This document shows, piece after piece, positions 8,094-32,000 of a stretch of DNA of 32,000 nt (positions are counted from its first letter, which is position 1; each line of letters begins with the position of its first letter). A program made the translations under genes and the position numbers. Under the pieces are notes generated by a model. It was given only the letters and a program-made list of their open reading frames with translations. It was not told the DNA's origin and ran no database searches. The stretch comes from an uncultured Candidatus Saccharibacteria bacterium (GTDB taxonomy: Bacteria > Patescibacteriota > UBA1384 > XYA2-FULL-43-10 > 1-14-0-10-43-13): contig CAZIYE010000004.1 of the NCBI GenBank assembly GCA_964543385.1, forward strand, positions 1-32,000, written 5' to 3'.

Positions 8094-8105
8094 TTAAAGG
8101 AACCA

Positions 8106-8876: not shown

Positions 8877-8881
8877 TTTTC

Positions 8882-9171: not shown

Positions 9172-9201
9172 TTGAAAAATACATCTAAAAAGTGATAAGT
9201 T
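9172..9201 (+). promoter_or_regulatory. Candidate sigma-70 promoter for eno-gpmI
   Basis: TTGAAA (9172-9177), 17-18 nt spacer, TG-a-TAAGTT / ATAAGT (9193-9201). About 35 nt upstream of the eno ATG. Confidence 0.3.
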
Positions 9202-9233
9202 ATGGACTGATTATAAATTATTTTAGGAGAAAA

Positions 9234-10529
9234 ATGTCAAAAATTGCACAGATTGTGGCTAGAGAAATTTTAGATTCTCGAGGCAATCCTACAGTAGAAG
9301 TAGATTTAACACTGGATGATGGCTCTTTCGGCCGATCTGCAGTTCCATCAGGTGCTTCAACTGGAAGTTACGAAGCAGTCGAATTACGTGATGGCGGAAC
9401 AAGATACATGGGCAAAGGAGTAGAGACTGCCATAAATAATGTAAATAATATTCTAAAACAAGAATTGGTCGGCAAGGAATTCAATCAGGAATTGATCGAT
9501 GAAACTATGATTGCAATTGACGGGACTGAGAACAAGGGCAGACTAGGAGCAAACGCAATCTTGGGGGTTTCCATGGCCTTTTCACACGCCCAAGCAAAAA
9601 GCCAAGGCATTTCATTATATAAGTATTTTGAGAAAATAGCCGAGACTGGCAAGGAAATCAGATTGCCGGTGCCAATGATGAATATATTAAACGGCGGAAA
9701 ACATGCGGAGAATTCAACCGACCTACAGGAATTCATGATTATGCCTGCCGGAGCACCATCTTTTAAGGAAGCGCTTAGATATGGCACTGAGGTATTTCAT
9801 AATTTGAAAAAAATTCTAGCAGCTAAAGGCCTAAACACATCAGTCGGCGACGAAGGCGGTTTTGCACCAGCTCTTCCTTCTAACGAAGCTGCTCTAGAAG
9901 TTATTGTCGAAGCCATAACGAAAGCTGGTTATGTACCAGGCAAGGATATTTATATTGCTATCGACGGTGCTGCGACAGAGCTTTACGAGGATGGGAAATA
10001 TAACCTGGCGACCGAAGGCAAAAAGCTTACAAGTGAGGAAATGATTGATTTATACGCATCATGGCTTCAAAAATATCCGATTATCTCCATTGAAGATGGC
10101 TTGTCAGAGGATGACTGGGCTGGGTATGAATTATTCACACAAAGACTTGGTGACAAAGTTCAAATCGTTGGTGATGATCTATTCGTTACGAATATTAAAA
10201 GACTTCAAGATGGCATTAAAAGAAACGCTGCAAACTCAATCCTTATCAAACTAAACCAGATTGGCACAGTCTCAGAAACTATTAAGGCTATAAAGATGGC
10301 AAATGAGGCCGGTTTTACATCAATTGTTTCTCATCGTTCCGGCGAGACCGAAGATCCAACAATCGCTGATTTTGTAGTAGGACTTGCCAGTGGACAGATA
10401 AAAACTGGATCGCTTTGCCGATCAGAAAGAATCTGCAAATATAATCAACTCTTAAGAATCGAAGAAGAACTGGGAGATAAAGCTATTTATCCTGGTTTGA
10501 ATGCTTTTAATTTTTCCAAAATCAATTAA
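9234..10529 (+). CDS. eno: Enolase (phosphopyruvate hydratase)
   Basis: [23 protein letters not shown]..., SHRSGETED and the rest align with canonical enolase. AGGAG SD at 9225-9229 supports ATG 9234 rather than the track start at 9192. Confidence 0.95.
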
Positions 10530-10540
10530 AAAATAAATCT

Positions 10541-12061: not shown

Positions 12062-12072
12062 AAAGCGTACAT

Positions 12073-12105
12073 AAAAAAGAGGCTCTACAAGAGCCTCTTT
12101 TTTTA
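12073..12105. terminator. Bidirectional rho-independent terminator
   Basis: A6 tract, perfect 9-bp stem aagaggctc/gagcctctt, 5-nt loop, T7 tract. Lies between convergent gpmI (+) and minus-strand genes. Confidence 0.75.
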
Positions 12106-12118
12106 TATCGTAATGTAG

Positions 12119-12247
12119 TTAGCGAATCTCTTTTTCCTGTCTCGACGGCTCAGTATCTCCGCTATTTTGCCAATTCCATACGCCCCATAAAGCCGCTACA
12201 ATTGCTATGATCGCAAGCACAAATATTAGTAGCTTTTTATAATTCAT
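12119..12247 (-). CDS. Possible 42-aa single-TM micro-protein
   Basis: Below the ORF-track cutoff. MNYKKLLIFVLAIIAIVAALWGVWNWQNSGDTEPSRQEKEIR. Its ATG lies within the last codons of the PPIase gene (ATGAATTATAA, 11-nt overlap). It ends just before the terminator. No SD. Confidence 0.3.
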   Translation of the reverse strand: MNYKKLLIFVLAIIAIVAALWGVWNWQNSGDTEPSRQEKEIR

Positions 12248-13253
12248 AAAATTTCAGAATTAAACTTTTTGCCTTGATACCTTCCATCCAATCCGTGAAT
12301 TTTTCCTCTATACTGCCAGTTTTAGATTCTACTTTGATAATATGCCAGCCAAATTCGCTTCTTACCGAAGAAGATATTTCGCCAACTTTTGTCTTAAAGG
12401 CTTCTTCAGAGAATTCATCTACCATATCCCCCTTAGCAAAGGGTTCTAAAGTTCCTCCCTGTTCGGCGCTACCAGTATCCTCTGAATATTTCTTTGCAGC
12501 TTCGGCAAAATCAAGTCCTGCTTTAATTTCGGTTAATATCCCCTCTATCTTTGTTTTGGCGGCGTCCACAGTCTCTTGATTAGCATCTTTGTCCACACGG
12601 ATAAGGATATGTTTGGCCTGAATCTTGGCGATAGATGTTTCGTTTAGCTTATCTCGTAAAAGCTGAATTTTCACAAGCTTGGTAAACTCTTTCAAAGTTA
12701 ATCCATATAATTCCTGCAGAACCTTCTCGACTTTTTCCTTGCCGCCATTTTGTTCCACTATAGCATTAATAGTAGAGTCAACATCTTTTTTATCAACTTT
12801 TATCCCATCATTCATTGCTCTGAATTTGATAATCTTGTTTTCAATAAGCTGGTCTATAATCTGACTATCAATTTCCTTAAAATTTACCTCTTCTTGCTTA
12901 GTGGCGTCATAAAAATGATGAATATAATTTCTCTCATTGAGATAATCGTTATAAGTAATAAAGTCATAATTAACAACAGCAATTGGGAGAGGTATTATCT
13001 TTGCAGCTATCTGTGTGGCTTTATTGTCAATCTTAAAACCATAAACCATGACCGCAAAGACAGCTTCTACGATAGCGATCGCAATAAAGATAATTACTAT
13101 AGGCAAAGACAGCTTCCGCCAATTTATCTTACTTGTTATGAATTTTGATTTAGACGAACAAGACTTAAAACAATTTTTGGTCTTGACGGACAAGGACTTA
13201 AAAAACGATATTATAGATTTAATATCGAAATTAACTTTTAATTTATTCTTCAT
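12237..13253 (-). CDS. Membrane-anchored parvulin-type peptidyl-prolyl isomerase (PrsA/SurA-like)
   Basis: 338 aa. N-terminal TM. C-terminal PpiC domain: 'AKHILIRV...FAEAAKKYSEDTGSAEQGGTLEPFAKGDMVDEFSEEAF...SEFGWHIIKVE'. Confidence 0.85.
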   Translation of the reverse strand: MKNKLKVNFDIKSIISFFKSLSVKTKNCFKSCSSKSKFITSKINWRKLSLPIVIIFIAIAIVEAVFAVMVYGFKIDNKATQIAAKIIPLPIAVVNYDFITYNDYLNERNYIHHFYDATKQEEVNFKEIDSQIIDQLIENKIIKFRAMNDGIKVDKKDVDSTINAIVEQNGGKEKVEKVLQELYGLTLKEFTKLVKIQLLRDKLNETSIAKIQAKHILIRVDKDANQETVDAAKTKIEGILTEIKAGLDFAEAAKKYSEDTGSAEQGGTLEPFAKGDMVDEFSEEAFKTKVGEISSSVRSEFGWHIIKVESKTGSIEEKFTDWMEGIKAKSLILKFYEL

Positions 13254-13294
13254 ATATCTCCAATTTTTATCTCATTATATAAGAGGTTATGTTA

Positions 13295-13867
13295 TTAGAC
13301 AAGACCACCCCAGGTTGATGTAAGAAAAACCAATATAATCGCCAAGGTAGTTATTATTACATATGTTAAAAAATTATTATCCATATGTTTAGCCAAAATA
13401 GTATAACAATATCCAACAAATAGATAGCTTATTGAAGCAATAATTAAACTCTGGTTGATAGGACTAATGGCAAAATAGCTCAAAGCCAAAAAGGCCTGCA
13501 AGATTATAAGACTAAATAAGACTAGATATATTAGTCGTTTATTCCCTAATATTCCGATCTTTTGCTCAGTATAAGTAAAAAGATAGCCGAATATAATAAC
13601 AACCCCTATCATTATAAGCCAGAGGGGTATGCTCAACTGAAACATAAATACACTAAAAGCATATGTAGAAGTAAAAGAGAGTAGGATAAGGGTAAATATT
13701 GTTGATTTCTCCGTCCAGATGAAGATTAGACCTAGCAAGGAAATAAAAATGATCAGCCAAGATAATACCGAGCTATCCTGATTGGTCAAATAAAAAGATA
13801 GGTTACTCCATGTAAGTATGAGCGTTAGTAGTATTTTCCGGGCCAGCTGGTTGTGCAAAAACGCCAT
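13295..13867 (-). CDS. Polytopic membrane protein, unknown function
   Basis: 190 aa, 5-6 hydrophobic segments. Begins 3 nt after the LCP gene stop. Confidence 0.6.
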   Translation of the reverse strand: MAFLHNQLARKILLTLILTWSNLSFYLTNQDSSVLSWLIIFISLLGLIFIWTEKSTIFTLILLSFTSTYAFSVFMFQLSIPLWLIMIGVVIIFGYLFTYTEQKIGILGNKRLIYLVLFSLIILQAFLALSYFAISPINQSLIIASISYLFVGYCYTILAKHMDNNFLTYVIITTLAIILVFLTSTWGGLV

Positions 13868-13870
13868 AAA

Positions 13871-15259
13871 TTAACTCTTCGAAGAATTGTAGTCATCACC
13901 GATGATTATCCTAATATCGGTTGTTTCTCCGTCCTTTTTATCAGCAGTCTTTATTTCTGCATTTAGCCTATTTTTTAAGAATTCTAGAGTATTTTTTTTG
14001 CTTTGTCCACTTAAATCATAAATAACCGTATTGGCTGTTTTTTGTTTTGCAACTGAAATAGAGGATATTGTATAACCGCTTTTTTGCAGCTCCTCCGCTA
14101 ATATACCACCAAGACCGGATTTAGCAGAACCATTCTGAATCTCAATTCTGGCCGATTCTTTTTTCTTATAGTCAAAGATATTTTCAGCCAGATTCTGGAT
14201 TTCCTTAAAATTTCCTGATTTTGGTTTTAGATAATAGAGTCCATTGTTGTGGTCGACAAGAAGTCCATTGGGACCATTTGATAGAACTTCTGTTATCGCG
14301 CCGTCCATAGATATGCCGCTTATTAGCTCTAGGAAAGATTTGGTTTCGCTTGGCGTAAGACTGAGTCTTATGCTATTTCCAAGAGTCGCCGTGACATCAG
14401 CAATTTTTTTAGGATTTGCCAAGAAACCAGCCTTCATTGCCCGTTCCTTTACTGCCGAAACTATCTTTTGTTGTCTAGCAGCACGATCAAAATCAGATGT
14501 CGTCTCTCTAGAACGAGCATATTTCAGAGCCGTTTTGCCATCCAGGTGATGCTGTCCTGCTTTTATTTTAAATGGTGCATAACCCTTCATTGCATCATCA
14601 GGAAAGAGCGGATCATAGATTGTCTTTTCGACGTAAACATCCACTCCCCCTAATTGATCAATGACTTTCTCGAATCCCTTGAAATCAGCTGTAATATAGT
14701 AATGTATCGGAATATCCAGAACGCCCGAAACAACATCAACGGATTGTCTTGCTCCGGCCGTCAAAGCAAGCTCCTGACAAGCAGAGGCATTTTTTTTGTT
14801 GCACTGCTTAGTATAATAATCGTTATATCCAGCATAAAAGGCAGAATTTATTTTGTCATCTCCTCTACCAGGAACTTTTACCTGAAGATCGCGCGGAATT
14901 GACAAAATGGCAACCTTTTTGTCACTCGGTCTAATGCTTAAAACCATAATACTATCAGTCAGTAAACCCCCGGGATGATTAACCCCGCCCATACCCATTA
15001 GTAATACATTTATACGGTCCTGATCTTCACCCTTTAGTTTTTCCTTGCCATAAAAAGTCTTGATTAGTGACTGACCGCCGAGTCCTTGCTCAAAGACTTT
15101 TGAGCCAGAGGCGACTAAAAATGCAGCATAGGAGATAACAAGGATTAGAAGTAAAGACAAAGCCATAATGACAATCCGCCAGATCTTCTTCTTTGGAGGT
15201 TTATTAGACTGCTTTAAATTATGTCTAGGATTTTGTTTTTTCTTTAAGAAAAATGACAT
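13871..15259 (-). CDS. LytR-CpsA-Psr (LCP) family cell-envelope phosphotransferase with LytR_C domain
   Basis: 462 aa. N-terminal TM. 'RINVLLMGMGG...TDSIMVLSIRP...ILSIPRDL' LCP core. C-terminal 'ARIEIQNGS...IIIGDDY' LytR_C-like domain. Confidence 0.85.
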   Translation of the reverse strand: MSFFLKKKQNPRHNLKQSNKPPKKKIWRIVIMALSLLLILVISYAAFLVASGSKVFEQGLGGQSLIKTFYGKEKLKGEDQDRINVLLMGMGGVNHPGGLLTDSIMVLSIRPSDKKVAILSIPRDLQVKVPGRGDDKINSAFYAGYNDYYTKQCNKKNASACQELALTAGARQSVDVVSGVLDIPIHYYITADFKGFEKVIDQLGGVDVYVEKTIYDPLFPDDAMKGYAPFKIKAGQHHLDGKTALKYARSRETTSDFDRAARQQKIVSAVKERAMKAGFLANPKKIADVTATLGNSIRLSLTPSETKSFLELISGISMDGAITEVLSNGPNGLLVDHNNGLYYLKPKSGNFKEIQNLAENIFDYKKKESARIEIQNGSAKSGLGGILAEELQKSGYTISSISVAKQKTANTVIYDLSGQSKKNTLEFLKNRLNAEIKTADKKDGETTDIRIIIGDDYNSSKS

Positions 15260-15309
15260 TTTTATATTAGAAAATTAATTAACTACAAAGATCATCTTAT
15301 CAAATAACC

Positions 15310-15681
15310 CTATTTGAGTCTAGATTTCTCCTTGGTGATAAACGGTTCTTTCAGATATCTAGCTGACACAGGTCGTTTAAAATTATCGTTTTCGTCCACA
15401 TCTCCCGCACAGACAACCGGAATATTGAGACCAAAAGCGAGAAAATTTGCTGTGGTAATACCAACTCTAATGCCAGTATATGAACCAGGCCCGCAGTTAA
15501 CCACAATCTTGTCTATAGATTTTTTAGAGAAATTATTCTTTTTTAGTAATTCGTCTATAACCTGTAATAATTTCTCGCTCTGGCTGAAACGTAGACTATC
15601 TCGATATTGATCGATAATCTTGCCATTATCATCATTCAGGGCCATAATTGTATCATCACTTGTATCAATATATAATTGCAT
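15310..15681 (-). CDS. tsaB: Short TsaB-like protein (t6A biosynthesis, N-terminal half only)
   Basis: 123 aa. 'LYIDTS...' and 'GPGSYTGIRVGITTANFLAFGLNIPV' match the TsaB/YeaZ N-terminal domain. Immediately downstream of tsaE. Confidence 0.7.
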   Translation of the reverse strand: MQLYIDTSDDTIMALNDDNGKIIDQYRDSLRFSQSEKLLQVIDELLKKNNFSKKSIDKIVVNCGPGSYTGIRVGITTANFLAFGLNIPVVCAGDVDENDNFKRPVSARYLKEPFITKEKSRLK

Positions 15682-15687: not shown

Positions 15688-16107
15688 CTAGTAGCTAATT
15701 TGTCTAGAATTTTTATCAATAAACAGAAATTTTATTGATTTAGACTTATTTTTTATTATCGGCCAGACATTTTCAGGCCACTCTATCAAGACAACATTTT
15801 CCTTATTATCAATTACCTCGGAAAGTCCGATAGAATCTGCATCAGCCAAAGAAGTCAAACGATATGCATCAATATGGACTAAATACTTTATTTCATTATG
15901 GTCAGTCGGATAAATTTTCATAATGTTGAAAGTCGGACTTTTTATAGTCTTTTGTATCCCCAAGGACTTGGCCAAACCCTTCACAAATGTTGTTTTGCCA
16001 GCGCCAAGATCGCCGAACAGGGCGAAAACCTTGCCTCCCTTTAGATCTGCTGCCAATTTGGCACCCAGGCCAAACGTCTCTTTCTCACTTTTTGAAATAA
16101 TATCCAT
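15688..16107 (-). CDS. tsaE: tRNA t6A37 biosynthesis ATPase TsaE
   Basis: 139 aa. Walker A 'GDLGAGKTTFVKG', 'SPTF' and 'HIDAYRL' blocks of YjeE/TsaE. Confidence 0.9.
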   Translation of the reverse strand: MDIISKSEKETFGLGAKLAADLKGGKVFALFGDLGAGKTTFVKGLAKSLGIQKTIKSPTFNIMKIYPTDHNEIKYLVHIDAYRLTSLADADSIGLSEVIDNKENVVLIEWPENVWPIIKNKSKSIKFLFIDKNSRQISY

Positions 16108-17342
16108 AATGTATAAATAATTGTACCAAAAATTAAACTAAGTATCTCGCTCGGCCCAGCCATAGGCAGGTGATCAGAAGTCAATACTTTAACATCTTCT
16201 TGCTTTGTTGGCAATATTCTATATTCGCCTTTGTATTCCGATACAATACCAGCAATCTCTACCTTGTCCCCTTTTCTCATCTTCGGCTTATCGATATTCG
16301 CCGAATCACGAATGTTAACTTTGATTTTTTCATCAGAGTTTTTCGTCCCAACCACAAAATTGTCACCGCTAGTCTCAATGACTAGTCCGGTTATTTTAAT
16401 ATATTCCCCTTCATATTTTTCACTAATTTCTGAGACTTCAACTCGCACTGGAATAATTTCGGCTACATTTTCCAAGATACGAATATTAGTAATATCTGCA
16501 ATCTTAATTCTCCTCTCGCCCGAGACACTAGATAATTCACCGCTAATTAAAATTTTGTCCCCGAGCTTTAATATGGGAAATAGTTTGTGATAATTATAGA
16601 CTTGCATACCACCAGTCTTATCCTCAATATAGAAGTATTGAGTAGACAGTACGCCAGGCAAAACCGTAACTATGCCAGAAACCGTAGTTTTATCACCATC
16701 TTGATCTTCTCGAGCTATAGCAATATCTACGATAATATCTTCTGTCTTAATTTCCTCTGGCTCAACAATAGGAAGAGGTCCAGAGCCAGGGGAAGGTTTT
16801 ATATTCATAATAAACTGACCATCAATAGGCGCTCTCTCTATCGACTGTCCATCATCTATAACCAAATCCTTGTAGTCAGTTGAGTTCCAAATAACTTCAT
16901 TTATAATGTTTTTGTCGCCATCCAAAATAGTCAAAGTATCGTTTGAATTGCTCAATCCATTTCCGATTACATGCTCCAAGTAAATTACTTTTGCTCCTAG
17001 ATCAACGTCAGGGAAATTTATTAGAAAAAATTCCTTGTAAGCAGCTATTACAAGAAAACTATCAGGCTCGACCACATAGGAAATGTTTGAGATAATAACG
17101 CTATCCATATTGTCCTTAAGCGACCAATTTATTATGTCAACTGGCTCGTCTGTATTGTTATAGAGTTCGACCCATTCATATTTTGTATCAGTTCCTGCTT
17201 GGATCGGGTTGTAATAAACCTCAGAAATCAACAGTGAGCCCACGGGACGAGTATCGTCAGCCGCCTTAACAAACTCAGGCAAAAAATATGTTGCCGAGAA
17301 ACAAATAACGAACAATAAAGTTTTTACTATTTTTCCCCTCAT
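16041..17342 (-). CDS. Secreted lamin-tail-domain (LTD) protein with two OB-fold-like modules and an LPxxG-type C-terminal sorting signal
   Basis: 433 aa. Signal peptide. LTD block 'LLISEVYYNP...YEWVELYNNTDEPVDIINWSL'. Two 'xVxGIVT...' OB-like segments. C-terminus is LPMAG + 20 hydrophobic residues + KVRKRR (LPMAG at nt 16155-16169). The last 67 nt overlap tsaE. Confidence 0.75.
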   Translation of the reverse strand: MRGKIVKTLLFVICFSATYFLPEFVKAADDTRPVGSLLISEVYYNPIQAGTDTKYEWVELYNNTDEPVDIINWSLKDNMDSVIISNISYVVEPDSFLVIAAYKEFFLINFPDVDLGAKVIYLEHVIGNGLSNSNDTLTILDGDKNIINEVIWNSTDYKDLVIDDGQSIERAPIDGQFIMNIKPSPGSGPLPIVEPEEIKTEDIIVDIAIAREDQDGDKTTVSGIVTVLPGVLSTQYFYIEDKTGGMQVYNYHKLFPILKLGDKILISGELSSVSGERRIKIADITNIRILENVAEIIPVRVEVSEISEKYEGEYIKITGLVIETSGDNFVVGTKNSDEKIKVNIRDSANIDKPKMRKGDKVEIAGIVSEYKGEYRILPTKQEDVKVLTSDHLPMAGPSEILSLIFGTIIYTLWILFQKVRKRRLAWVPNWQQI

Positions 17343-19474: not shown

Positions 19475-20073
19475 TCCAGCCTCCTCTCTTTTAGGGATTC
19501 AAGACATCCACAATATGCTGGCAATGATACGCCATGATTTCTAGCATAATTTCTTCCCATCCAATAGCCCTTACGAAAGTCTTGATAATAGAAATTTACC
19601 CCGTAGTCTAAAGCAATTTCATTGCTAATCTCGACTATCTCATCATGATTTTTATATGGGGAACAAAGCAATGTGGTAGTAAAATATTTGATCCTTCTTT
19701 TTTTTGCCTGTTCAATTGTTTTTTGCATTACCATCGAATTGCAGAGAAAACAACGTTTTCTTCGATACCGCTCCTTATCACTGATATACTTCATCGAGGC
19801 AGGATCTTTAAAGGGATTGGTCAAATTAGAAAAATCGCTTGGGTCATAGTTTGCTTCGACGAATTCTATTTTGTTATTTAGGCAGTATTCTATTAGTCCT
19901 TGCTTGCGCTGGTTATATTCTTGCGCCTCATCGATCTCTGGATTGTAAAAAAAGGCTACTACTTTAAAACCAACTTTTTCTAGCTCCGAAAAAACATGAC
20001 TGGCACAAGCTGTGCAGCAACTATGTACAAAAATTTTTTTGCTCATAGCCGATATCCTTATATTAATTGGCAC
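19471..20073 (-). CDS. queH: Epoxyqueuosine reductase QueH (DUF208 family)
   Basis: 200 aa. 'HSCCTACAS', 'FFYNPEI', 'RCFLC', '[14 protein letters not shown]', 'YCGC' match the QueH Cys motifs. Confidence 0.8.
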
Positions 20074-21104
20074 TGATCTACTGGCTTTTGTATTCTGAGG
20101 TGTTTATAAGCCAGAAGTGTGGCGATTCTACCACGATTAGTACGATTAATAAACCCCAGCTGTAGAAGATATGGCTCTATAACGTCCTCTATTGTGTCTT
20201 TGTCTTCGGAAATTGCCGCGGAGATAGTCTCTAACCCAACTGGACCGCCACTAAATTTATTGATTATAGTATCCAGATAAAAACGATCATTTCTATCCAG
20301 ACCTAATTCATCAATATCTAACTTATTGATTGCTTCAAAAGCTACAGCCTTATTCACAACACCATTATGCTTTACTTCTGCATAGTCTCTCACTCTCTTG
20401 AGAAGACGATTAGCTATACGTGGAGTCTTCCTTGATCTTTTGGCAATTTCTAGAATACCGCTATCATCTATCTTTATCCCAAGTATCTGTGCCGACCTTC
20501 TGATAATTTCTGAAAGTTCTTTATCTTCATAAAATTCAAGTCTATGTACAAAACCAAAGCGATCACGCAAAGGAGATGAAAGCGAACCAAACTTTGTAGT
20601 AGCACCGATTAAGGTAAACTTTGGAAGATTCATTCTCATTGCTTTTGCAGAAGGCCCCTTACCTAATATTAGGTCAACGGCGTAATCCTCCATGGCAGAA
20701 TACAAAATTTCCTCGACTGTGGTATTGAGACGATGAATCTCATCGATGAAAAGAATATCGCTCTCAGATAAATTCGTCAGCAGAGACACCAGATCTCCTG
20801 ATCTTTGGATGGCTGGACCTGACGTTATTCTAATATTTACTCCCATCTCAGAGGCAATAATATTTGCAAGAGTAGTTTTGCCAAGCCCTGGAGGACCATA
20901 AAAAAGCATATGTTCAACTGGTTCGCTTCTTTTTCTGGCGGCTTCTATAAATATAACTAGATTTTCTTTGATTTGATTTTGTCCGACGTATTCTGCAATT
21001 TTTTTAGGCCGCAAAGAAAAATCGAGCACTTCATCATCATTAGTAAAAGAAGTGGAGGTTAAATCAGACTCGAAATTTTCGCTATCACTTTTTTTCATAT
21101 ACAA
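20058..21104 (-). CDS. ruvB: Holliday junction branch migration helicase RuvB
   Basis: 348 aa. '[12 protein letters not shown]', Walker A 'GPPGLGKTT', 'FIDEIHRL', C-terminal winged helix. Alternative ATG at 21098. Confidence 0.95.
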
Positions 21105-21173
21105 AATAATAAGTCATTGGAGATCTTAGGCTTATTATAGATAGTCTGTCTGGATATGTAAAATAATAAATAA

Positions 21174-21758
21174 TTACTTCGCTGATAAGTTTTTTAAACA
21201 CCACCGAACTCTTTCTTCGGTGGAGATTATATCGGATGGGATTTTACTAACCAACCCCTGTATTTCTGATTTTTTATAGCCCAAAGATTGCATTGCATCC
21301 ATTAAATCATCTGCTTCATCAATTTTCCCGATGACGTTAATGCTTTTATCAGAAGATATTTTTGATTTAAGATCAAGGATTATTTTGGCTGCTACTTTCT
21401 TACCTATTCCAGAAATTGCAGTAAAGAAACTCATGTCATCGCTGATTATTGCATGAAGAATTTTATCTGTCCCCGCATAGCTCATAATATTTAAACCAGC
21501 TTTTGGACCGACACCATTAACAGAAATCAATTTCTCAAATAACTCTAATTCTTGGTAGCTCAAAAAACCATAAAAATCATCGGCATCCTCCCTGATATGC
21601 TCATAGATATATAGCTCTACATCTTCTCGCGTATCGACGATGTTATTCTTTATTTTGATTTGCGGATTGACAAAAACTTTATAACCGACTCCTCTAGTTT
21701 CCAGGATAATAAGACCCCATTTAAATAAAACTACTCTACCTTTTAGATAAGAAATCAT
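21174..21758 (-). CDS. ruvA: Holliday junction DNA-binding protein RuvA
   Basis: 194 aa. 'MISYLKGRV...GVGYKV', HhH 'LISVNGVGPKAGLNIMS' and 'ISGIGKKVAAKII'. Its ATG directly abuts the upstream stop (TAAATG). Confidence 0.9.
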   Translation of the reverse strand: MISYLKGRVVLFKWGLIILETRGVGYKVFVNPQIKIKNNIVDTREDVELYIYEHIREDADDFYGFLSYQELELFEKLISVNGVGPKAGLNIMSYAGTDKILHAIISDDMSFFTAISGIGKKVAAKIILDLKSKISSDKSINVIGKIDEADDLMDAMQSLGYKKSEIQGLVSKIPSDIISTEERVRWCLKNLSAK

Positions 21759-22763
21759 TTATTTGTCCTTCTTGGTTTCAGGAAAAGCAATATCTAGTAT
21801 ATCTCCTGCGACATTTCGAGACTCACCCTCGTAAGGGAAATGATGCATAAATATTCCAGGACTTGAGTTTATCTCCACAATAATGTGATTGTCGGGTGTT
21901 TGCTCTACTGTAATATCCCTTGAAAGAAAATCCATGCCGCCATAGGCAAGGCCGGGGATTGCCTTAATTACTTTTACTGCAATTTCGTGCACTGAAGGAT
22001 GAACCTTATCGGTAAAATCGATGCTGTCACCCCCAGTTGAAAGATTGGAATTTTCACGCAGGAATACTTGTTCGCCAGCTTGCGGCTTATAATTGATGTC
22101 TCTGTTAGACTTTTTTAATGTTTCAATAACAATGTCATCTATATCAATTTTTACGAGGCATTTTTTAAAATCCTTATATGAGTCATCACCTCTTCTGGGA
22201 TCAGAATTTTTAATCTCCACTAATTCTTTTATTGTGTGGATGCCATCGCCGATCACATTAGCAGGAACACGATTAGTAATTCCCAGTACTTTGTCCTGAC
22301 TAGCAACTACTCGATACTCCGTACCGCCATCAAAATAGCGCTCGACAAGAATATTATTGAATTTAATTGATACTTTCTGCCAGTGTTTAATAAAATCATC
22401 CTCGTCGGCAATATTTGCAAAAACACAATTTCCATGACTTGAATTTGTCGGTTTAATAACAACCGGATATCCTATTTTCTTTGCAAAGGCCAGCGCTTCA
22501 TCTAACTGCATTTTGGTAAATTTTTCGCCTTCGGCTATTGATAGGCCAGCCTCTTTTAGAACCTGCTTCGTCAAATTCTTATTGTTAACTAACTCATAAG
22601 CAACCGATGTTGTTTTGGAAATAAATTGGCAACACAGGTATTCTTCATGACCTCCATAGCTTAGTTTGGCAACTTTTCCTGGGCATAAGTCATCTACCTT
22701 GACACCACGTTTATTTGCTTCATTAACAATGATCTGAGTTGAGATTGTATAATTTTCTTTCAT
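21759..22763 (-). CDS. Stand-alone ATP-grasp ligase, GshF C-terminal / cyanophycin synthetase G-domain type (paralog B)
   Basis: 334 aa. 'YPVVIKPTNSSHGNCVF', 'RVPANVIGDGIHTIKELVEIKNSDPRRG', 'FLRENSNLSTGGDSIDFTDKVHPS', 'GGMDFL', 'VEINSSPGIFMHHFP'. Confidence 0.8.
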   Translation of the reverse strand: MKENYTISTQIIVNEANKRGVKVDDLCPGKVAKLSYGGHEEYLCCQFISKTTSVAYELVNNKNLTKQVLKEAGLSIAEGEKFTKMQLDEALAFAKKIGYPVVIKPTNSSHGNCVFANIADEDDFIKHWQKVSIKFNNILVERYFDGGTEYRVVASQDKVLGITNRVPANVIGDGIHTIKELVEIKNSDPRRGDDSYKDFKKCLVKIDIDDIVIETLKKSNRDINYKPQAGEQVFLRENSNLSTGGDSIDFTDKVHPSVHEIAVKVIKAIPGLAYGGMDFLSRDITVEQTPDNHIIVEINSSPGIFMHHFPYEGESRNVAGDILDIAFPETKKDK

Positions 22764-22770
22764 TCTTTAC

Positions 22771-23751
22771 CTATTTAATTGTTTCTGGAAAATTGACATC
22801 GATAATTGCTGACGCAATATCAACCGGTTTGCCAATCGTTGGCTGATGGTGCAAAGCAATTCCAGGAATAGAATTTACTTCGATCACAACATAATTATCT
22901 TTATTCTGAAGTTTGGTGATATCTTTTGTCATAAAATCAACCCCGCCATATTGCAAACCTGGTATTGCCTCAATAGCTTTCCTGGATATCTCTAAAACTG
23001 AAGGGTGTGCAATTTCATTACAGTCAAGACTTTCACCCCCTGTAGCAATATTAGAGTTTTCACGTAAGAATATTTGTTCATCCTTTTTTGGGATATAGTC
23101 TAAATCGTGTCCTTCTTTCTTAATCGTTCCGCGCACAACATCATCAATTACAATTTGTGCTAGTGGTGTAAGACCGGGGCCTCGTCTAGGATCCTGATTT
23201 TTTATGCCGATAAGTTCGCGCAGATTGTGAGTACCGTCACCAACTACATTAGCAGGAATTCGGTGTATGACAGATAGAGATTTATCTCTGGTAGCGAATA
23301 CGCGGTATTCTTTGCCAATAAACATCTTTTCAACAATAATTTCGCTATATTTTTGGCCAATTTTTTTCCAGGCAGATAAAAACTGCTCCTTGTCCGATAT
23401 GTTTGGAAACACAAGATCACCTTCCATGCCGGTAGTTGGCTTTACCACAACTGGCCAACCATTTTTTTCCACGTATGACAAAGCTTCATAGATTTGATCA
23501 TTTAAGAAATTCATGCCTTTAGGGACTTCAACCCCTGCTTCCTCGAGCAACATTTTTGTAAAATTTTTGTTCAGGCAAAACTTCGAAGCAAGTGCAGTCG
23601 TTTTAGATGAAAGAGTTTCATTGAAATACTCTTTATGTCCTTGATACTCCAAAACAAAGTAGTCCCTATGGTAAAATCTGACACTTATTCCCCGCTTTAT
23701 TGCTTCATCTGTGACATATTTGACTGCCAAACGCATGACTTTGTGACTCAT
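22771..23751 (-). CDS. Stand-alone ATP-grasp ligase, GshF C-terminal / cyanophycin synthetase G-domain type (paralog A)
   Basis: 326 aa. Alignable end-to-end with paralog B ('RIPANVVGDGTHNLRELIGIKNQDPRRG', 'FLRENSNIATGGESLD', 'GGVDFM', 'EVNSIPGIALHH', 'FPET'). AAGGAG SD upstream of the ATG at 23751. Confidence 0.8.
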   Translation of the reverse strand: MSHKVMRLAVKYVTDEAIKRGISVRFYHRDYFVLEYQGHKEYFNETLSSKTTALASKFCLNKNFTKMLLEEAGVEVPKGMNFLNDQIYEALSYVEKNGWPVVVKPTTGMEGDLVFPNISDKEQFLSAWKKIGQKYSEIIVEKMFIGKEYRVFATRDKSLSVIHRIPANVVGDGTHNLRELIGIKNQDPRRGPGLTPLAQIVIDDVVRGTIKKEGHDLDYIPKKDEQIFLRENSNIATGGESLDCNEIAHPSVLEISRKAIEAIPGLQYGGVDFMTKDITKLQNKDNYVVIEVNSIPGIALHHQPTIGKPVDIASAIIDVNFPETIK

Positions 23752-23839
23752 CAGTACTCCTTTTTGTTGTCTTATTTCTCTCTTATCAAGATAACGGTAA
23801 TGACCGCTTAAATCAAGTGATTTATCTTATTGCTTAGGG

Positions 23840-23868
23840 TTGAAAAAGTTAGGAAAATATTGTATAGT
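23840..23868 (+). promoter_or_regulatory. Candidate sigma-70 promoter for the PGM1-like ligase gene
   Basis: TTGAAA (23840-23845), 17-nt spacer, TATAGT (23863-23868) preceded by TG. Located in the divergent intergenic region. Confidence 0.4.
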
Positions 23869-23928
23869 TTTGGCTTACTCTATATCAAAAAGCTTGCCCT
23901 TAAGGGCCAAATAGTGGACAATACAATT

Positions 23929-25488
23929 ATGAAAACCGAAGAGCAGATAATCTTTTCGAATCTTCAAAAAAGATTGAAAAAAAATAAGAAGCTTTCTAAC
24001 TACAATTATCGTGGCGAAAGAACTTTTGTAGTTGTCTCGGGCTTAAATTCTGACAAATTTAACCTTTCAAAAGTTAAGGGCTTAAGATTTTATGAAGAGA
24101 GAATGTTGTTTATCCTTTTTCTTCTCAAATATAAGAATACGAAGATTGTATATGTAACTTCTGATAATTTTGACACCACTCTATTCGATTATTATCTAGG
24201 CTTGATATCAGGCAAGCCAAAAGAGATTGCCGATATGAAATCAAGATTGACCCATATTCAGGTAAAAGACAGCCAGCACCTGAGTCTTACCGAAAAGCTA
24301 TACAATTCTCATGCCGCTCTCAAAAGAATTGCTAAGGCTATTACAAATGAAAAGACCACCGTTTTACGTTGCTATAATCCAACTATTCTTGAAAGAAAAT
24401 TAGCAGTAAGAATTGGTATACCCCTCTTCGGATCTGCCGAGAAATTTGATTACGTTGGCAGTAAAAGTGGCGGACGCAAGGTATTTAAATTAGCCGACCT
24501 AAATGTCATCCCCGGAATTACTAGCTTGAAAAGTTTTACTGAACTTTATGGGGCAATCGCGAAATTAATGAGAGACTACCCAAAGTTCAAGAAATTGGTA
24601 ATTAAACTTGAACAGGGTGCTTCTGGTAGGGGGAATTGTCTCTTTTCTGTAGAAGATTTTTTGAATGACAATGATATCGAGATTTCTATTAGAACAGATC
24701 TGGCCAAACTCACCTCTTTAATCAAAAAGAATTTCCATAAATATTGCAGGTTAGAAGCGGATGACTTAGAGATAGAGAGATATATCAGGGAATTCAATAG
24801 GATTGGCGGCATAGTTGAGGGTTATGTCGATGGAAAAATAAAATATTCTCCTAGCGCACAGTTGTTTTTATCGACAGAAGGAAAAGTCTCTATTGCTTCT
24901 ACCCATGAGCAAATTCTCGGTGGTTCTGACGGTCAAAAATATCTTGGCTGTACATTTCCGGCTTTGGACGTTCATCGCAAGCTAGTTATTCGAGAGGCCA
25001 AAAAAGTCGGTGACTGGATGATAAAGAAGGGTATGGTTGGTCATTTCTCGATTGATTTTGTTACGGTTCAGTCAAATGAGTTAGAAATACCGAAGATATA
25101 CCCAATTGAGATAAATTTACGTAAAGGCGGCACAACTCATCCTTTTAGAATTGCTTACTATCTGACTAAATCAAAATATAATAAGCGGGACGGCATTTTA
25201 TACTGTGGCAAAACTCCAATTTATTATATGGCCAGAGATATCGTAGAATCAGAGAAATACAAAGTTTTATCATCATCCGAGCTGATTAAGATGATTGATA
25301 AGAGCAAAATTAGTTTCAATAAAAATACCAAAAAAGGCGTTATGGTCTATATGCCAGGAATGATCTCGGAGTATGGAAGATTTGGCGCATTATCGGTTGG
25401 CCATACCAAAGAGGAAGCAGAAGAATACTTTAAAAAACTTATAAAAGCTATCAACCTACACTCTAATAGAAAAATAAATAAAATTTAG
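23929..25488 (+). CDS. PGM1-type peptide ligase (pre-ATP-grasp + ATP-grasp domains)
   Basis: N-terminal 'FVVVSGLNSD...LRFYEERMLFILFLLKYKNTKIVYVTS...FDYYLGLISG' and C-terminal 'VIKLEQGASGRGN', 'GHFSIDFV', 'IEINLRKGGTTHPF' resemble the PGM1-related ligase family. The start is ATG 23929 or in-frame GTG 23914. The track start at 23830 is a TTG upstream of the predicted promoter. Confidence 0.7.
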   Translation: MKTEEQIIFSNLQKRLKKNKKLSNYNYRGERTFVVVSGLNSDKFNLSKVKGLRFYEERMLFILFLLKYKNTKIVYVTSDNFDTTLFDYYLGLISGKPKEIADMKSRLTHIQVKDSQHLSLTEKLYNSHAALKRIAKAITNEKTTVLRCYNPTILERKLAVRIGIPLFGSAEKFDYVGSKSGGRKVFKLADLNVIPGITSLKSFTELYGAIAKLMRDYPKFKKLVIKLEQGASGRGNCLFSVEDFLNDNDIEISIRTDLAKLTSLIKKNFHKYCRLEADDLEIERYIREFNRIGGIVEGYVDGKIKYSPSAQLFLSTEGKVSIASTHEQILGGSDGQKYLGCTFPALDVHRKLVIREAKKVGDWMIKKGMVGHFSIDFVTVQSNELEIPKIYPIEINLRKGGTTHPFRIAYYLTKSKYNKRDGILYCGKTPIYYMARDIVESEKYKVLSSSELIKMIDKSKISFNKNTKKGVMVYMPGMISEYGRFGALSVGHTKEEAEEYFKKLIKAINLHSNRKINKI

Positions 25489-25519
25489 TGACTTTTCGAT
25501 AAGTGATAAGCTGCTAAGA

Positions 25520-26509
25520 CTAAGATCTCCCCTTTAAATACTCTGCGGCTTCTTCTGGCGGCATAGTATTGATGACAATATCGCTACTCAACTCAAAACC
25601 ACCGTATCTAGAGACTCTTGGCACAATTTCAATATGCCAATGGTACGAATCGGAGTTCTCGTGAATCGTTGGCAATGTATGGATGTAAAAGTTTAGAGGT
25701 GGGTTTTCTAGGGTTTTGTCGATCATTTGGAAAACAGTGGTCAAAGCATCTGCACAATCTTTCATATAAGTTTTTGAAGTATTCTCGAACTGACTTTCGT
25801 GTTTTTTGGGCATAACCCAGGTCTCAAAAGGAAATCTAGGTGCATAAAAATTGAAGGCGATGAAGTGCTCATTTTCATATACAACTCTGATTTTTTCTTT
25901 GATCTCATGATGAATAATATCGCAGTAAACACAAGCCCCATTTATGCCATAGTAGCGGTCTGCGCCCTCTAACTCTCTGCCGACTTCATTTGTTACAATT
26001 CCTGAAGCAAATATCTGAGCATGCGGATGATCGATAGATGCTCCAGCTTCGGCCCCATGATTGTAGATAGGAACAATAGAGGCAACTTTCTCATGCTCTT
26101 TCATCCATAGATATCTTTCTCTTATAACCTCAAGGACTTCATCCATGAGAGATTTACTAAACTTCAATAATGGGGTTGTGTGATCTTTTATGATAATTAC
26201 TTCGTGATCCCCCACGGAGGCACGTGCGCGATAAAAACCCTCTTCAGGATAAAAACTTCTGATTGATTTTTTGGATTCATCTTCAACAAAAGCCGGAAAA
26301 CGATTCTCAACTACATAAACATTCTCTGTTTCATATTTCATGTGAGCTTTATTCTGTTTGTATCCTACAGAATCCACACAAAATGGACAGTTATCCTTAT
26401 TAGAAACTTTCACACTTTTTGGAATAACGAAATCTTTTGGACGCTTTGCTCTTTCTGGCGCTACGACTACCCAATCACCAGTTATGATATTTTGTCTTAG
26501 TTCTGGCAT
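25520..26509 (-). CDS. galT: Galactose-1-phosphate uridylyltransferase-like (HIT superfamily, GalT type) nucleotidyltransferase
   Basis: 'CPFC' zinc motif near the N-terminus and 'HPHAQIF' (HxHxQ) active site. GGAGGG SD supports the ATG at 26509 (MPELRQN...) over the track TTG at 26524. Confidence 0.8.
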   Translation of the reverse strand: MPELRQNIITGDWVVVAPERAKRPKDFVIPKSVKVSNKDNCPFCVDSVGYKQNKAHMKYETENVYVVENRFPAFVEDESKKSIRSFYPEEGFYRARASVGDHEVIIIKDHTTPLLKFSKSLMDEVLEVIRERYLWMKEHEKVASIVPIYNHGAEAGASIDHPHAQIFASGIVTNEVGRELEGADRYYGINGACVYCDIIHHEIKEKIRVVYENEHFIAFNFYAPRFPFETWVMPKKHESQFENTSKTYMKDCADALTTVFQMIDKTLENPPLNFYIHTLPTIHENSDSYHWHIEIVPRVSRYGGFELSSDIVINTMPPEEAAEYLKGRS

Positions 26510-26541
26510 CTTCCCTCCGATCAAATTTTCAATTTTATTTT

Positions 26542-27045
26542 TTAAACTATCTTTTGATTTGTTTGGCCATGGCAGATTGCAATAGCCAATGCATCAGCAG
26601 CATCATCTGGCTTTGGACAATCTTTGAGTTTGCATGTAACCTTTACCATTTCTTGTATCTGATTTTTGTCTGCCCTGCCATAACCAGTTAAGGCCTGTTT
26701 TACCTGTAAAGGCGTATACTCGAAGACTGGCAGACTGAAATTTTTTGCGACAACGATTGCCACCCCTCTTGCCTCGGCAACCGAAATTATTGTTTTCTGG
26801 TTTTTAAAGAAAAATAGTTCTTCAATCGCAAATTCATCTATCTGGTTTGTCCTAATTATATCAGATAAGGAATTGAAAATATGCAAAAGACGCTCGCTGC
26901 GCTCGCTATTTGCCGGAGTTCTTACACAACCATATTTTATAGGGATTATTTCAGATCCCCTTTTCTCTATTATCCCCCAGCCCATTATACCAGTCCCTGG
27001 ATCAATACCAAGAATTCTAATCGAGTTATTTTTTAATTTTTCCAT
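26542..27045 (-). CDS. ruvC: Crossover junction endodeoxyribonuclease RuvC
   Basis: 167 aa. 'ILGIDPGTGIMGWGII', 'AIEELFF', 'DAADALAIAICH' are RuvC catalytic blocks. Confidence 0.9.
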   Translation of the reverse strand: MEKLKNNSIRILGIDPGTGIMGWGIIEKRGSEIIPIKYGCVRTPANSERSERLLHIFNSLSDIIRTNQIDEFAIEELFFFKNQKTIISVAEARGVAIVVAKNFSLPVFEYTPLQVKQALTGYGRADKNQIQEMVKVTCKLKDCPKPDDAADALAIAICHGQTNQKIV

Positions 27046-27776
27046 TATAGATTAGCGTTTGAGTACACATTATTTACATCATCGAGATCATCGAGCGCTT
27101 CAAGTAAGATTTCGATTGATTCCATCTTGTCAGCCGGCACATCATTGTAAACTTTTGCCATTTGTATAGCCTCAGCACTGGTGACAACCACTCCGGCTGC
27201 CTCAAGATTAGATTTAACTGAATTTATATCAGGGAATTCGCAAGTAACTACGACAAGACCATCATCAACAGAAAAATCTGTAGCGCCAGAATCAATGATT
27301 GCCATTTGCATTTCTTCGCCCTTGAGAGGATTATTTGTCTCATCAATAATGATTTGACCAACCTTATTAAAAAGATAATTAACACTGCCAGCGGAGGCCA
27401 GAGTACCACCCTTTTTATTCAGAACAGCCCTGATTTCGCCTAGTGCTCGGTTCTTTGAGTCAGTTAGACATTCAATCATAATAGCGATACCTGCTGGTCC
27501 GTAGACTTCATAGATAATCTCTTCGAGTGCCGCACCACCATCAAGTCCCCCAAGACCTTTTTTGATTGCTCTATCGATATTGTCTTTTGGCATACTTACG
27601 GATTTTGCATTGTCGATGGCAATTCGAAGTCCTGGATTCATTGCTACGTCGCCGCTTTTACCATCACGAGCCGCGATAGTAATAAGTTTGGCTGCCTTGG
27701 TAAAAACCTTGGCGCGCTTAGAATCGATAATTGCTTTTTTATGTTTAGTTGTTGCCCATTTACTATGTCCCGACAT
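27045..27776 (-). CDS. yebC: YebC/PmpR family DNA-binding regulatory protein
   Basis: 243 aa. 'MSGHSKWATTKHKKAIIDSKRAKVFTK' is the canonical YebC N-terminus. 1-nt overlap with ruvC. Confidence 0.9.
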   Translation of the reverse strand: MSGHSKWATTKHKKAIIDSKRAKVFTKAAKLITIAARDGKSGDVAMNPGLRIAIDNAKSVSMPKDNIDRAIKKGLGGLDGGAALEEIIYEVYGPAGIAIMIECLTDSKNRALGEIRAVLNKKGGTLASAGSVNYLFNKVGQIIIDETNNPLKGEEMQMAIIDSGATDFSVDDGLVVVTCEFPDINSVKSNLEAAGVVVTSAEAIQMAKVYNDVPADKMESIEILLEALDDLDDVNNVYSNANL

Positions 27777-30793: not shown

Positions 30794-30911
30794 TTTGCGT
30801 AATATATAGCAGACTTAATTAGCTATCGACTTAGACAGCTTGTCTTTTTTGTGTTATAAGGAATTCAGTGCCAATCATGGCCGAAACTCCCCTTTTCAAA
30901 AGGAGCCCCAT

Positions 30912-31220
30912 ATGTTGTTTGTGGACACATCACTGCTGTCAGCAGCAGGGGCAGTGATCTTCCGTGTCGGAGGTGGATTAGAAAGCATCACCATCGATGA
31001 CGTTGCACGGATCGTTGAACTTTACAACGGCGAAAGCAAGGAGCGACTCCTTGCACTGGCCTACATCGACGCGATCAAGGCGCGTGCCGCCTCGGACGGC
31101 AACACCGGCAAATTCGCCGAAATCGCCGCTGCGCTCGATGCTGCGCTCACCCCACGCGAGAAGGACATAACTCCCCTTCTCGAATCACTCCATCTGCCCG
31201 GAATGGGTGATGAGGGATAA
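30912..31220 (+). CDS. Hypothetical Ala-rich acidic protein on a high-GC islet between grpE and dnaK
   Basis: AAGGAG SD at 30900-30905, then ATG 30912. 102 aa: MLFVDTSLLSAAGAVIFRVGGGLESITIDDVARIVELYNGESKERLLALAYIDAIKARAASDG... Hand-counted GC is 175/309 (~57%). Followed by a GC-rich terminator. No family recognised. Confidence 0.6.
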   Translation: MLFVDTSLLSAAGAVIFRVGGGLESITIDDVARIVELYNGESKERLLALAYIDAIKARAASDGNTGKFAEIAAALDAALTPREKDITPLLESLHLPGMGDEG

Positions 31221-31351: not shown

Positions 31352-31400
31352 TTGACAAAATGTAAAGTCTACTTTACATTTTATATGTATTGGTTATAAT
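31352..31400 (+). promoter_or_regulatory. Candidate tandem sigma-70 promoters for dnaK
   Basis: P1: TTGACA (31352-57), 17 nt, TACATT (31375-80). P2: TTTACA (31373-78), 16 nt, TATAAT (31395-400). About 70-90 nt upstream of the dnaK ATG. Confidence 0.5.
31357..31382. promoter_or_regulatory. Perfect 12-2-12 inverted repeat (candidate operator) overlapping the dnaK promoter
   Basis: AAAATGTAAAGT-ct-ACTTTACATTTT. The arms are exact reverse complements. It spans the P1 spacer and -10 and the P2 -35. Confidence 0.5.
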
Positions 31401-31470
31401 ATAATCAAGCAATAACAATTGCCTTCGGGCAAGATTAACAAAGAAATTAAGTAATAAATAGGAGAACGAT

Positions 31471-32000
31471 ATGTCAAAGATCATCGGTATTGACCTTGGT
31501 ACTACAAATTCAGCCGTGGCTGTAATGGAAGGTGGCGAGGCAAAGATCATTACTTCAAGCGAAGGTGGACGCACAGTACCATCGATAGTTGCAGAAACTA
31601 AAAAGGGAGATAGATTAATTGGCCAACTAGCCAAGAGACAAGCTGTCACAAATGGTGATAATACTATTTTTTCGGTCAAACGTTTTATTGGTCGCAAATT
31701 TGATGATCCAGAAGTTCAGGCAGACCTCAAGAAAATGCCTTATGAGACCAAAAAGGCCTCTGATGGCTCCGTCCGAGTAATTATGAATGGCAAGGAATAT
31801 AGTTCTCAGGAAATCTCTGCTTTCATTCTACAAAAAATTAAGGCTGATGCTGAAACCTATCTAGGTGGCAAAGTAACAGAAGCTGTTATCACTGTACCTG
31901 CGTATTTCAATGATGCACAACGCCAAGCTACCAAAGACGCCGGTAAGATTGCTGGGCTTGAGGTAAAAAGAATTATCAACGAGCCAACAGCTGCGGCTCT
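31471..32000 (+). CDS. dnaK: Molecular chaperone DnaK (Hsp70), N-terminal part; continues past the window
   Basis: AGGAG SD 6 nt upstream. [22 protein letters not shown]...VPSIVA...[37 protein letters not shown]. Not in the ORF track because there is no stop in the window. Confidence 0.95.

Follow-up and report, generated by a model that had tools for sequence, protein, structure and literature searches.

The ATP-grasp module that forms the backbone-extending G domain of cyanophycin synthetase CphA1 and the C-terminal half of bifunctional GshF (GshAB) has, to our knowledge, been characterised only inside fused enzymes that make cyanophycin, glutathione or N-acetylglutaminylglutamine amide (NAGGN). 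We analysed 32,000 nucleotides (nt) of DNA from an uncultured Candidatus Saccharibacteria bacterium (assembly GCA_964543385.1, contig CAZIYE010000004.1, positions 1 to 32,000; this whole stretch is called the window), in which two adjacent genes, A and B, each encode one such module (a G-like ligase) and lie beside a third ATP-grasp gene related to BesA. The residue roles and numbering used here are those assigned to TeCphA1 by Miyakawa et al. (PMC9427784): lysines at the ATP phosphates, Mg ligands, acyl-phosphate/oxyanion arginines, a large-loop asparagine, and E215, H267, G456 and R458, which recognise the primer Arg and the Asp alpha-carboxylate, with Arg458 binding the alpha-carboxylate of the incoming Asp. 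BesA is described as an L-propargylglycine--L-glutamate ligase that forms gamma-Glu-propargylglycine (bioRxiv 10.1101/2025.10.10.681649; PDB 8yi6). The genes under study are the following:

22771..23751, minus strand: G-like ATP-grasp ligase A, 326 amino acids (aa), the upstream, BesA-proximal copy
21759..22763, minus strand: G-like ATP-grasp ligase B, 334 aa, the downstream, distal copy
23830..25488, plus strand: BesA/PGM1-family (Pfam ATP-grasp_IQCH) carboxylate-amine ligase, 552 aa, divergent from A
23752..23829, no strand: short intergenic spacer separating A from the BesA-like gene, reaching to 23928 with the ATG as start, and presumably holding both promoters

An earlier note on this DNA, made from the letters and their open reading frames (ORFs), had given the coordinates, lengths, shared direction and 7-nt gap of A and B exactly; both ORFs were confirmed on the minus strand, with the spacer at 22764-22770. 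The two are clear paralogs, as it had also said. They share 46% identity and 67% positives over their full length (BLASTP, E = 3e-105), and all the blocks it had quoted (PANVxGDGxH, IKNxDPRRG, FLRENSNxxTGGxSxD, HPSVxEI, IPGLxYGGxDF, E(I/V)NSxPGI and FPET) are present in both. The host is a genome of the candidate phyla radiation (CPR/Patescibacteria) with ~37% GC, and database relatives carry the labels Patescibacteria, Parcubacteria, Falkowbacteria and Saccharibacteria.

NCBIfam, PDB and Foldseek comparisons all bore out the proposed family, that of the CphA1 G domain and the GshF half. On the NCBIfam cyanophycin synthetase profile TIGR02068, the pair matched only positions ~156-476 of 862 (267 and 309 bits, cutoff 850). 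Alignments to the GshAB profile (215 and 255 bits, cutoff 425) and the N-acetylglutaminylglutamine synthetase (Ngg) profile (162 and 140 bits, cutoff 569) covered the C-terminal half, in the case of GshAB exclusively; scores were 55 and 48 bits for rimK_fam (cutoff 143) and 58 and 52 bits for Ddl (cutoff 243). The best PDB sequence matches were the CphA1 G domains 7lgn, 7wac and 7lg5 (E ~1e-50), with further matches to GshAB 3ln7 (2e-49) and CphA2 (1e-30), and the NCBIfam and PDB alignments were confined to CphA1 residues ~156-485. An AlphaFold model of B (pLDDT 95.2, pTM 0.91; 94-sequence alignment) gave Foldseek template modelling (TM) scores of 0.86-0.88 to substrate-bound TeCphA1 7wae and 0.86 to GshF 3ln6, against only 0.42-0.55 for RimK, Ddl and LysX (RimK ~0.53). 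The whole-domain fold is present, including the large loop NxSTGG, and the match is limited to the module. Judged from profiles and predicted structure, A and B are intact free-standing modules of the CphA1-G/GshF-C type; the view that the module here is stand-alone and duplicated holds, each protein consisting of the G domain only.

Both copies appear competent for catalysis. The equivalents of K220, K261, R309, R323, N394, D431 and E450 are invariant among 139 CPR homologs, A and B included; they correspond to K62, K104, R151, R165, N240, D278 and E297 in B, which also has S242, and to K62, K104, R150, R164, N234, D272 and E291 in A. All the residues expected of an ATP-grasp enzyme are therefore in place: both lysines at the ATP phosphates, the Asp and Glu that bind Mg, and the arginines of the acyl-phosphate/oxyanion site. 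Compared with an 87%-identical relative (locus L014), the proportion of nonsynonymous differences (pN) was 0.073 in A and 0.063 in B, against proportions of synonymous differences (pS) of 0.731 and 0.769, respectively, so that pN/pS of the pair is ~0.09. A and B are under strong purifying selection. Both genes are thus maintained, and decay, which the earlier note had proposed to recognise by lost catalytic residues, is not borne out.

These data bear on the idea that A and B are redundant or decaying duplicates without a joint function. The copy number of G-like genes is labile (1-3 per locus), and lineage-specific recent duplications occur (a trio in L016, 59-63% identical; a pair in L020, 59%), as that idea would have it. 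Against it, besides the intact residues and the low pN/pS, a genome (L096) whose BesA-like protein is only 58% identical has separate orthologs of A and of B, arranged in the same order; the ortholog pairings received 100% and 99% bootstrap, the former joining A with L096_prox. By these sequence comparisons the duplication in the window is older than those in L016 and L020. Furthermore, A and B differ at the specificity positions, which are hypervariable among CPR paralogs generally (W/Y/R/K/E at E215; S/F/D/A/R at R458), a pattern that fits different substrates for each copy. We regard mere redundancy or decay as refuted by this evidence and highly improbable. A single ancient A/B split with a fixed gene order was also considered and rejected: the deep 'proximal' class had 1.7% bootstrap and several duplications are recent, so orthologous A-like/B-like pairs are supported at moderate depth only.

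Another reading takes the pair for an ordinary glutathione synthetase, with gshA elsewhere, or for a split cyanophycin synthetase. Cyanophycin synthetase and GshAB are indeed the best profile matches, one source labels A 'cyanophycin synthetase', and genuine split GshF exists, with a G-like gene directly 3' of Glu_cys_ligase: in a Methanobacterium (L081, 8412-10972) the Glu_cys_ligase gene overlaps the downstream stand-alone GshF-type ATP-grasp gene, and in a Spirochaetota metagenome-assembled genome (MAG; L088, 8666-10960) it lies directly 5' of one. However, the scores of A and B fall far under the full-length cutoffs, and the trees place both proteins elsewhere. We built a 92-taxon neighbour-joining (NJ) bootstrap tree from sequences of 80 genome loci, among them CphA1 of cyanobacteria, GshF of Firmicutes and Pasteurellaceae, split GshF and the Bacillaceae paralogs. 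A and B lie outside the GshF clade including its split forms (100% bootstrap) and outside the CphA1 clade (92.5%). A smaller tree recovered all the G-like proteins of CPR as one monophyletic group apart from CphA1 and GshF, at 92%.

The residues that distinguish these groups differ as well. At positions 215, 267, 456 and 458, CphA1 reads E/H/G/R (in 5 out of 5 cyanobacterial sequences) and GshF L/F/A/H, whereas B reads E/H/G/F (E57, H110, G303, F305) and A reads K/E/G/A (K57, E110, G297, A299, with A236 at the position of S396). The Arg458 equivalent is lost in both, being Phe in B and Ala in A, and the GshF signature is missing, so a cyanophycin or glutathione product is unsupported; an addition to peptidoglycan in the manner of D-Asp ligases, also suggested earlier, found no specific support. 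No Glu_cys_ligase or Mur-ligase-like ORF was found in the window, in which profiles were run on all ORFs of 430 aa or longer, and none of the ~17 CPR loci examined places a glutamate-cysteine ligase (GCL) or Mur-like gene beside its G-like genes. A and B have no GNAT domain of the kind expected for Ngg. At the level tested, the glutathione synthetase and split cyanophycin synthetase readings are refuted, and we give them very little chance. On sequence grounds, A and B are outside any CHARACTERISED orthogroup; membership in a characterised family, which the earlier note had named as the finding that would overturn its proposal, was found for none, with RimK and Ddl remote.

The comparison with the two best-described relatives can be drawn in some detail. 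With the CphA1 G domain (TeCphA1 7wac/7wae; SuCphA1 7lg5), A and B share the fold over Gcore, Glid and the G-omega large loop at ~34% identity, together with the ATP, Mg and acyl-phosphate residues, and B additionally keeps E215 and H267. By contrast, they lack the N domain and the Mur-like M domain that complete the N, G and M architecture of CphA1, A has K, E and A at 215, 267 and 396, and their partner is a BesA-family ATP-grasp enzyme rather than a Mur-type ligase. With GshF/GshAB (3ln6, 3ln7), they share the hybrid ATP-grasp module (TM 0.86, E = 2e-49) and, by analogy, probably the type of chemistry, in which a dipeptide receives one amino acid at its C-terminal carboxylate; they differ from it in having neither a fused nor an adjoining Glu-Cys ligase, besides the signature and the clade exclusion described above.

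The third ATP-grasp ligase that had been seen beside the pair is present. Its start is ambiguous: TTG at 23830 gives 552 aa and ATG at 23929 (MKTEEQ...) gives 519 aa, and on identical contigs the called protein is 542 or 519 aa long. The protein matches Pfam ATP-grasp_IQCH (2e-25) and, weakly, PGM1_C, both of them domains shared with the BesA/PGM1 family, and aligns to BesA (PDB 8yi6) with E = 3.9e-27 over residues 68-535, a full-length match from which an N-terminal extension sets it apart. On the NCBIfam BesA profile NF042917 it scored 114.5 bits, far under the equivalog cutoff of 750, and it is therefore a family-level relative, not an ortholog. No other Bes-pathway genes were found near it.

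To describe its linkage, metagenome contigs were scanned with an alignment of the partner protein, close orthologs being at least 46% and distant homologs at most 36% identical. Among close-ortholog loci with an assessable upstream flank, 10 out of 10 distinct loci (window/L014 and L017 counted) had one or two G-like genes divergently adjacent, against 0 out of 69 loci of distant homologs. In L098, the module lies outside the ruv backbone (BesA-like <-> RimK - G-like - MATCAP-like carboxypeptidase), and the coupling of G-like and BesA-like genes is thus not merely inherited synteny. This conserved linkage shows the BesA-like ligase to be a conserved functional partner of A and B. Because the neighbour is obligate, the unit is a three-ligase module, which replaces the two-step A/B pathway put forward earlier. 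The statement that no partner is adjacent stands for the canonical partners, GCL and Mur ligases, and fails for this one.

The module is also no peculiarity of a single genome. The best 120 database matches to B were all 316-351 aa long, the stand-alone G-like family of CPR (139 sequences analysed) consists of single-domain proteins of 316-362 aa, and an exhaustive representative search of the wider superfamily at E <= 1e-30 returned 1,596 clusters at 50% identity. Nearly every CPR locus examined has yebC and ruvC directly before its ligase cluster, and each cluster holds several ATP-grasp genes; A and B share this length, context and clustering. Two layouts recur. Type I, that of the window, combines a GalT/HIT-like gene with an oppositely oriented ligase of 500-550 aa and with one or two G-like genes, and continues into ruvA-ruvB-queH-bPH-queA; RimK, sugar genes or an amidotransferase or peptidase of class-I GATase/C26 type are sometimes included. 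Type II has a seven-transmembrane (7TM) inactive transglutaminase, an ATPgrasp_ST::RimB-like fusion and one to three G-like genes, often with RimK and a GSH-S/YheCD-like ligase; PBP1 is often next after the cluster. In the literature searched, we found no description of stand-alone CphA-G-like ligases in CPR. By sequence and context, A and B belong to a widespread, conserved and previously uncharacterised stand-alone branch of the CphA-G/GshF-C superfamily.

As to function, our tentative preference is that A, B and the BesA-like ligase carry out successive ATP-dependent additions to a C-terminal carboxylate, yielding a short ribosome-independent peptide that is neither cyanophycin nor glutathione; we consider this plausible rather than probable. 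By analogy with homologous enzymes, each G-like ligase would bind ATP-Mg between core and lid and phosphorylate the C-terminal alpha-carboxylate of its acceptor to an acyl-phosphate, which a specific incoming amino acid would attack, so that one residue is added through an alpha-peptide bond. The BesA-like ligase may make or prime the starting amide, possibly a dipeptide of gamma-glutamyl type, and would take the place of GshA without being homologous to it. With their different residues at the specificity positions, A and B would then lengthen the C-terminus by different residues. The product would be a short peptide or tail, probably acidic, and could serve as a cytoplasmic solute, an envelope component or a tail on another molecule. 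A free dipeptide is the acceptor that we tentatively prefer; a protein C-terminus seems unlikely to us, and so does a polymer or envelope component.

Successive action of the three enzymes fits the general principle that operon-linked ATP-grasp ligases act in successive ligations (PMC4431377). Fusions add Rosetta-stone support for joint action, since 2-4 G-like modules occur in single chains, often terminated by an acylphosphatase domain (Magnetococcales, Nesterenkonia). The repeated presence in sister loci of RimK and of genes of RimB-like, MATCAP-like and C26 type suggests Glu-rich chains that are trimmed. Several points weigh against a short free peptide. A protein C-terminus or a polymer could equally be the acceptor. 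Copy number (1-3) and partner sets (BesA-like ligase versus 7TM-transglutaminase and ATPgrasp_ST-RimB) vary, which is unusual for a fixed small metabolite. At 114 bits against a cutoff of 750, gamma-glutamyl chemistry for the partner is an analogy only. No product-defining peptidase, transporter or precursor gene was found in the cluster of the window, and the trees are all NJ, with weak deep nodes (48.5% for CPR plus Bacillaceae).

The trimming enzymes of related loci raise the alternative that the G-like and partner ligases reversibly tail the C-terminus of a cellular protein, in the manner of RimK/RimB or TTL/MATCAP, with peptidases removing the residues. RimK itself extends ribosomal protein S6 at its C-terminus, and it accompanies G-like ligases in L017, L098 and most type II loci. 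Type II loci encode ATPgrasp_ST joined to a RimB-like peptidase, and such a peptidase is joined even to a G-like ligase in P0126 (492 aa; ligase 47% identical to B, with a RimB/Zn_protease-like retropepsin peptidase domain). C-terminal carboxypeptidases of the MATCAP family flank ligases in L016 and L098, and the cluster of the window is embedded in housekeeping genes, with B abutting ruvA. Yet that cluster has no peptidase and no candidate target protein was identified; moreover, the characterised relatives of the module (CphA1, GshF, Ngg) use small peptides or polymers rather than proteins, and the substrates of the BesA and PGM1 relatives are small molecules or peptides. We consider protein tailing unlikely, if by no means negligible.

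The type II layout recalls the Pseudomonas rloABC operon, itself uncharacterised, which has been linked to hypo-osmotic tolerance, cell shape and envelope/osmotic phenotypes and whose peptidase cleaves polyglutamate (PMC11957051). Type II clusters of CPR join G-like ligases with the same components as RimK/RimB and rloABC, and the logic may be similar, namely C-terminal amino-acid addition with dedicated trimming. The window, being type I, differs in having a BesA-family ligase and no RimK, RimB/RloA, RloB or RloC. In L016 and L098, the MATCAP/DUF1704-family proteins (tubulin tyrosine carboxypeptidase-like) that flank the ligase blocks lie at 7565-8998 and 13164-14909 and at 3480-4976, respectively; L016 additionally has a TTL/RimK/YheCD-like ligase, a set that parallels the eukaryotic TTL/MATCAP tyrosination cycle.

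A polymer of amino acids for the envelope or for storage is a further alternative. The ligases might act as a 'split cyanophycin-like synthetase', in which the G-like enzymes lengthen a backbone iteratively and the BesA-like ligase decorates side chains, or might make the peptide of an acidic wall polymer like teichuronopeptide (TUP), a poly-gamma-Glu/polyglucuronate polymer (PMC8153356). Part of the evidence for this comes from the nearest NJ outgroup of the CPR proteins, Bacillaceae arrays of 3-5 tandem G-like::acylphosphatase proteins (525-594 aa) from alkaliphilic or halophilic hosts, which lie by genes for TupA-like ATP-grasp, PGA_cap, Asp/Glu racemase, GT2 and ABC-transporter proteins:

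L050 (Halalkalibacterium halodurans DSM 497), 23-10975: Bacillaceae array
L032 (Evansella), 1339-15341: Bacillaceae array
L037 and L054: further Bacillaceae arrays

These arrays (H. halodurans, Evansella, Virgibacillus, Thalassobacillus), whose gene setting is of the type that goes with teichuronopeptide, resemble the window's pair in their tandem paralogs, variable specificity positions and clustering with ATP-grasp ligases, and may be the peptide-synthesis machinery of teichuronopeptide-type wall polymers. They differ in a C-terminal extension of ~200 aa with an acylphosphatase domain; the sister relationship has a bootstrap of only 48.5%, and the function of the arrays is itself putative. 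Within CPR, type II loci have the RloB-like 7TM inactive transglutaminase and an adjacent PBP1, the rlo operon being tied to envelope and osmotic phenotypes as noted above, and B keeps the CphA1-like E57 and H110. L011, a type I carrier, encodes a stand-alone ORF like the CphA N domain (PF18921, cyanophycin synthase-like N-terminal domain; 84 aa; L011/L012, 548-802, plus strand, between dnaK and grpE). However, no homolog of that ORF was found in the window (tblastn E > 0.6), whose cluster also lacks any transporter, glycosyltransferase (GT) or membrane component, and neither Arg458 in the two copies nor E215 and H267 in A is CphA1-like. GT4, PGM/PMM and ManC genes adjoin several clusters, but together with GT5 glycogen synthase and APH-type kinase genes they give the impression of a distinct module for alpha-glucan or sugars at the same locus. 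On balance, we find such a polymer rather improbable, and continue to prefer, tentatively, the short ribosome-independent peptide.

CPR/Patescibacteria have almost no amino-acid biosynthesis. In a broader proposal, which we judge possible but on the unlikely side, the ancient ruvC-ruvA locus of CPR would be a modular assembly line of free-standing ATP-grasp enzymes, using neither ribosome nor nonribosomal peptide synthetase, that makes a novel peptide or amino-acid polymer, and the G-like family would join CphA1 and GshF as a third branch with a function of its own. Its parts would be one to three G-like ligases with either the BesA-like ligase or an Rlo-like/RimK set. If so, the product could be a cyanophycin-like store of scavenged amino acids or an acidic envelope or osmoprotective peptide that matters for the episymbiotic lifestyle, and the branch would reach to the wall-polymer loci of alkaliphilic Bacillaceae and to multi-module 'mega-ligases' of other phyla. 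The analysis shows a large conserved branch of free-standing modules with diversified specificity pockets, always coupled with other amide ligases; related loci add trimming peptidases. Identifying the product would add a ribosome-independent peptide or polymer to bacterial biochemistry, would explain what is done by one of the few sets of anabolic genes that ultra-reduced CPR bacteria retain, and may inform the equally uncharacterised rloABC and TupA-locus systems. Stand-alone ligases that add single residues with varied specificity would also be attractive biocatalysts for peptide synthesis.

There is a practical consequence for annotation. At least one source gives such genes the automatic label 'cyanophycin synthetase', by which reconstructions of patescibacterial metabolism can be misled. 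A preprint on Saccharimonadia epibionts reports cyanophycin synthetase in 5 out of 21 Ca. Lutisaccharimonas MAGs by orthology annotation (bioRxiv 10.64898/2026.09.16.751625); since G-like genes receive this label, calls of this kind in Patescibacteria deserve a check of domain architecture.

The genes surrounding the module in the window are as follows:

21174..21758, minus strand: ruvA, whose start codon abuts the stop of B with a 0-nt gap
20058-21104, minus strand: ruvB, after ruvA
25520..26524, minus strand: GalT/HIT-like nucleotidyltransferase (DUF4921), a conserved neighbour in most type I loci
26542-27045, minus strand: ruvC, upstream backbone
27045-27776, minus strand: yebC, upstream backbone

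The order is thus yebC-ruvC-galT/HIT-(BesA-like, opposite strand)-A-B-ruvA-ruvB, a pattern that recurs in L003, L006, L011, L014, L017, L096 and L101-L105. The 0-nt gap makes co-transcription of ruvA with A and B likely. The GalT/HIT-like gene may be part of the ligase system, of a sugar-nucleotide module or of the backbone. A promoter-like TTGATA-18-TACAAT lies on the minus strand at 23888..23859, in a promoter and terminator scan whose overall counts were not above shuffled expectation. An Rfam scan of 20800-26700 for riboswitches and regulatory RNAs gave only two chance-level matches, and no PADLOC match that would point to anti-phage defence was found for A, B or the BesA-like protein.

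Several minor observations concern relatives of the G-like ligases. Among multi-module proteins we noted P0121 (1467 aa, with an additional LPG_synthase_C-like N-terminal domain), P0122 (1329 aa, Magnetococcales), P0127 (1396 aa, Nesterenkonia), P0129 (2393 aa) and P0152 (2287 aa), whose sequences look like ATP-grasp 'mega-ligases'. Bacteroidales stand-alone forms (L059) adjoin a GH3-family amido synthetase. The G-like proteins of L025 and L035, recorded as 'uncultured Pseudomonadales', nest in the CPR clade by NJ; these short contigs may be mis-binned CPR DNA or carry transferred genes.

Elsewhere in the window, ORFs at 30840-31220 and 31374-31697 had no Pfam match. A 433-aa secreted or anchored protein (16041-17342, minus strand) has Lamin-tail, DUF5689 and OB-fold-like regions and a C-terminal transmembrane segment, and its position after queA is conserved in L003 and L004. 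Envelope-related genes at 1142-4505, 5081-5983 and 13871-15259 encode a PMT_2 glycosyltransferase, a GT2 protein, a matrixin-like M10 peptidase and a LytR-CpsA-Psr ligase. The window also holds enolase and iPGM genes (9192-12061) and three tRNA genes (4850-6219).

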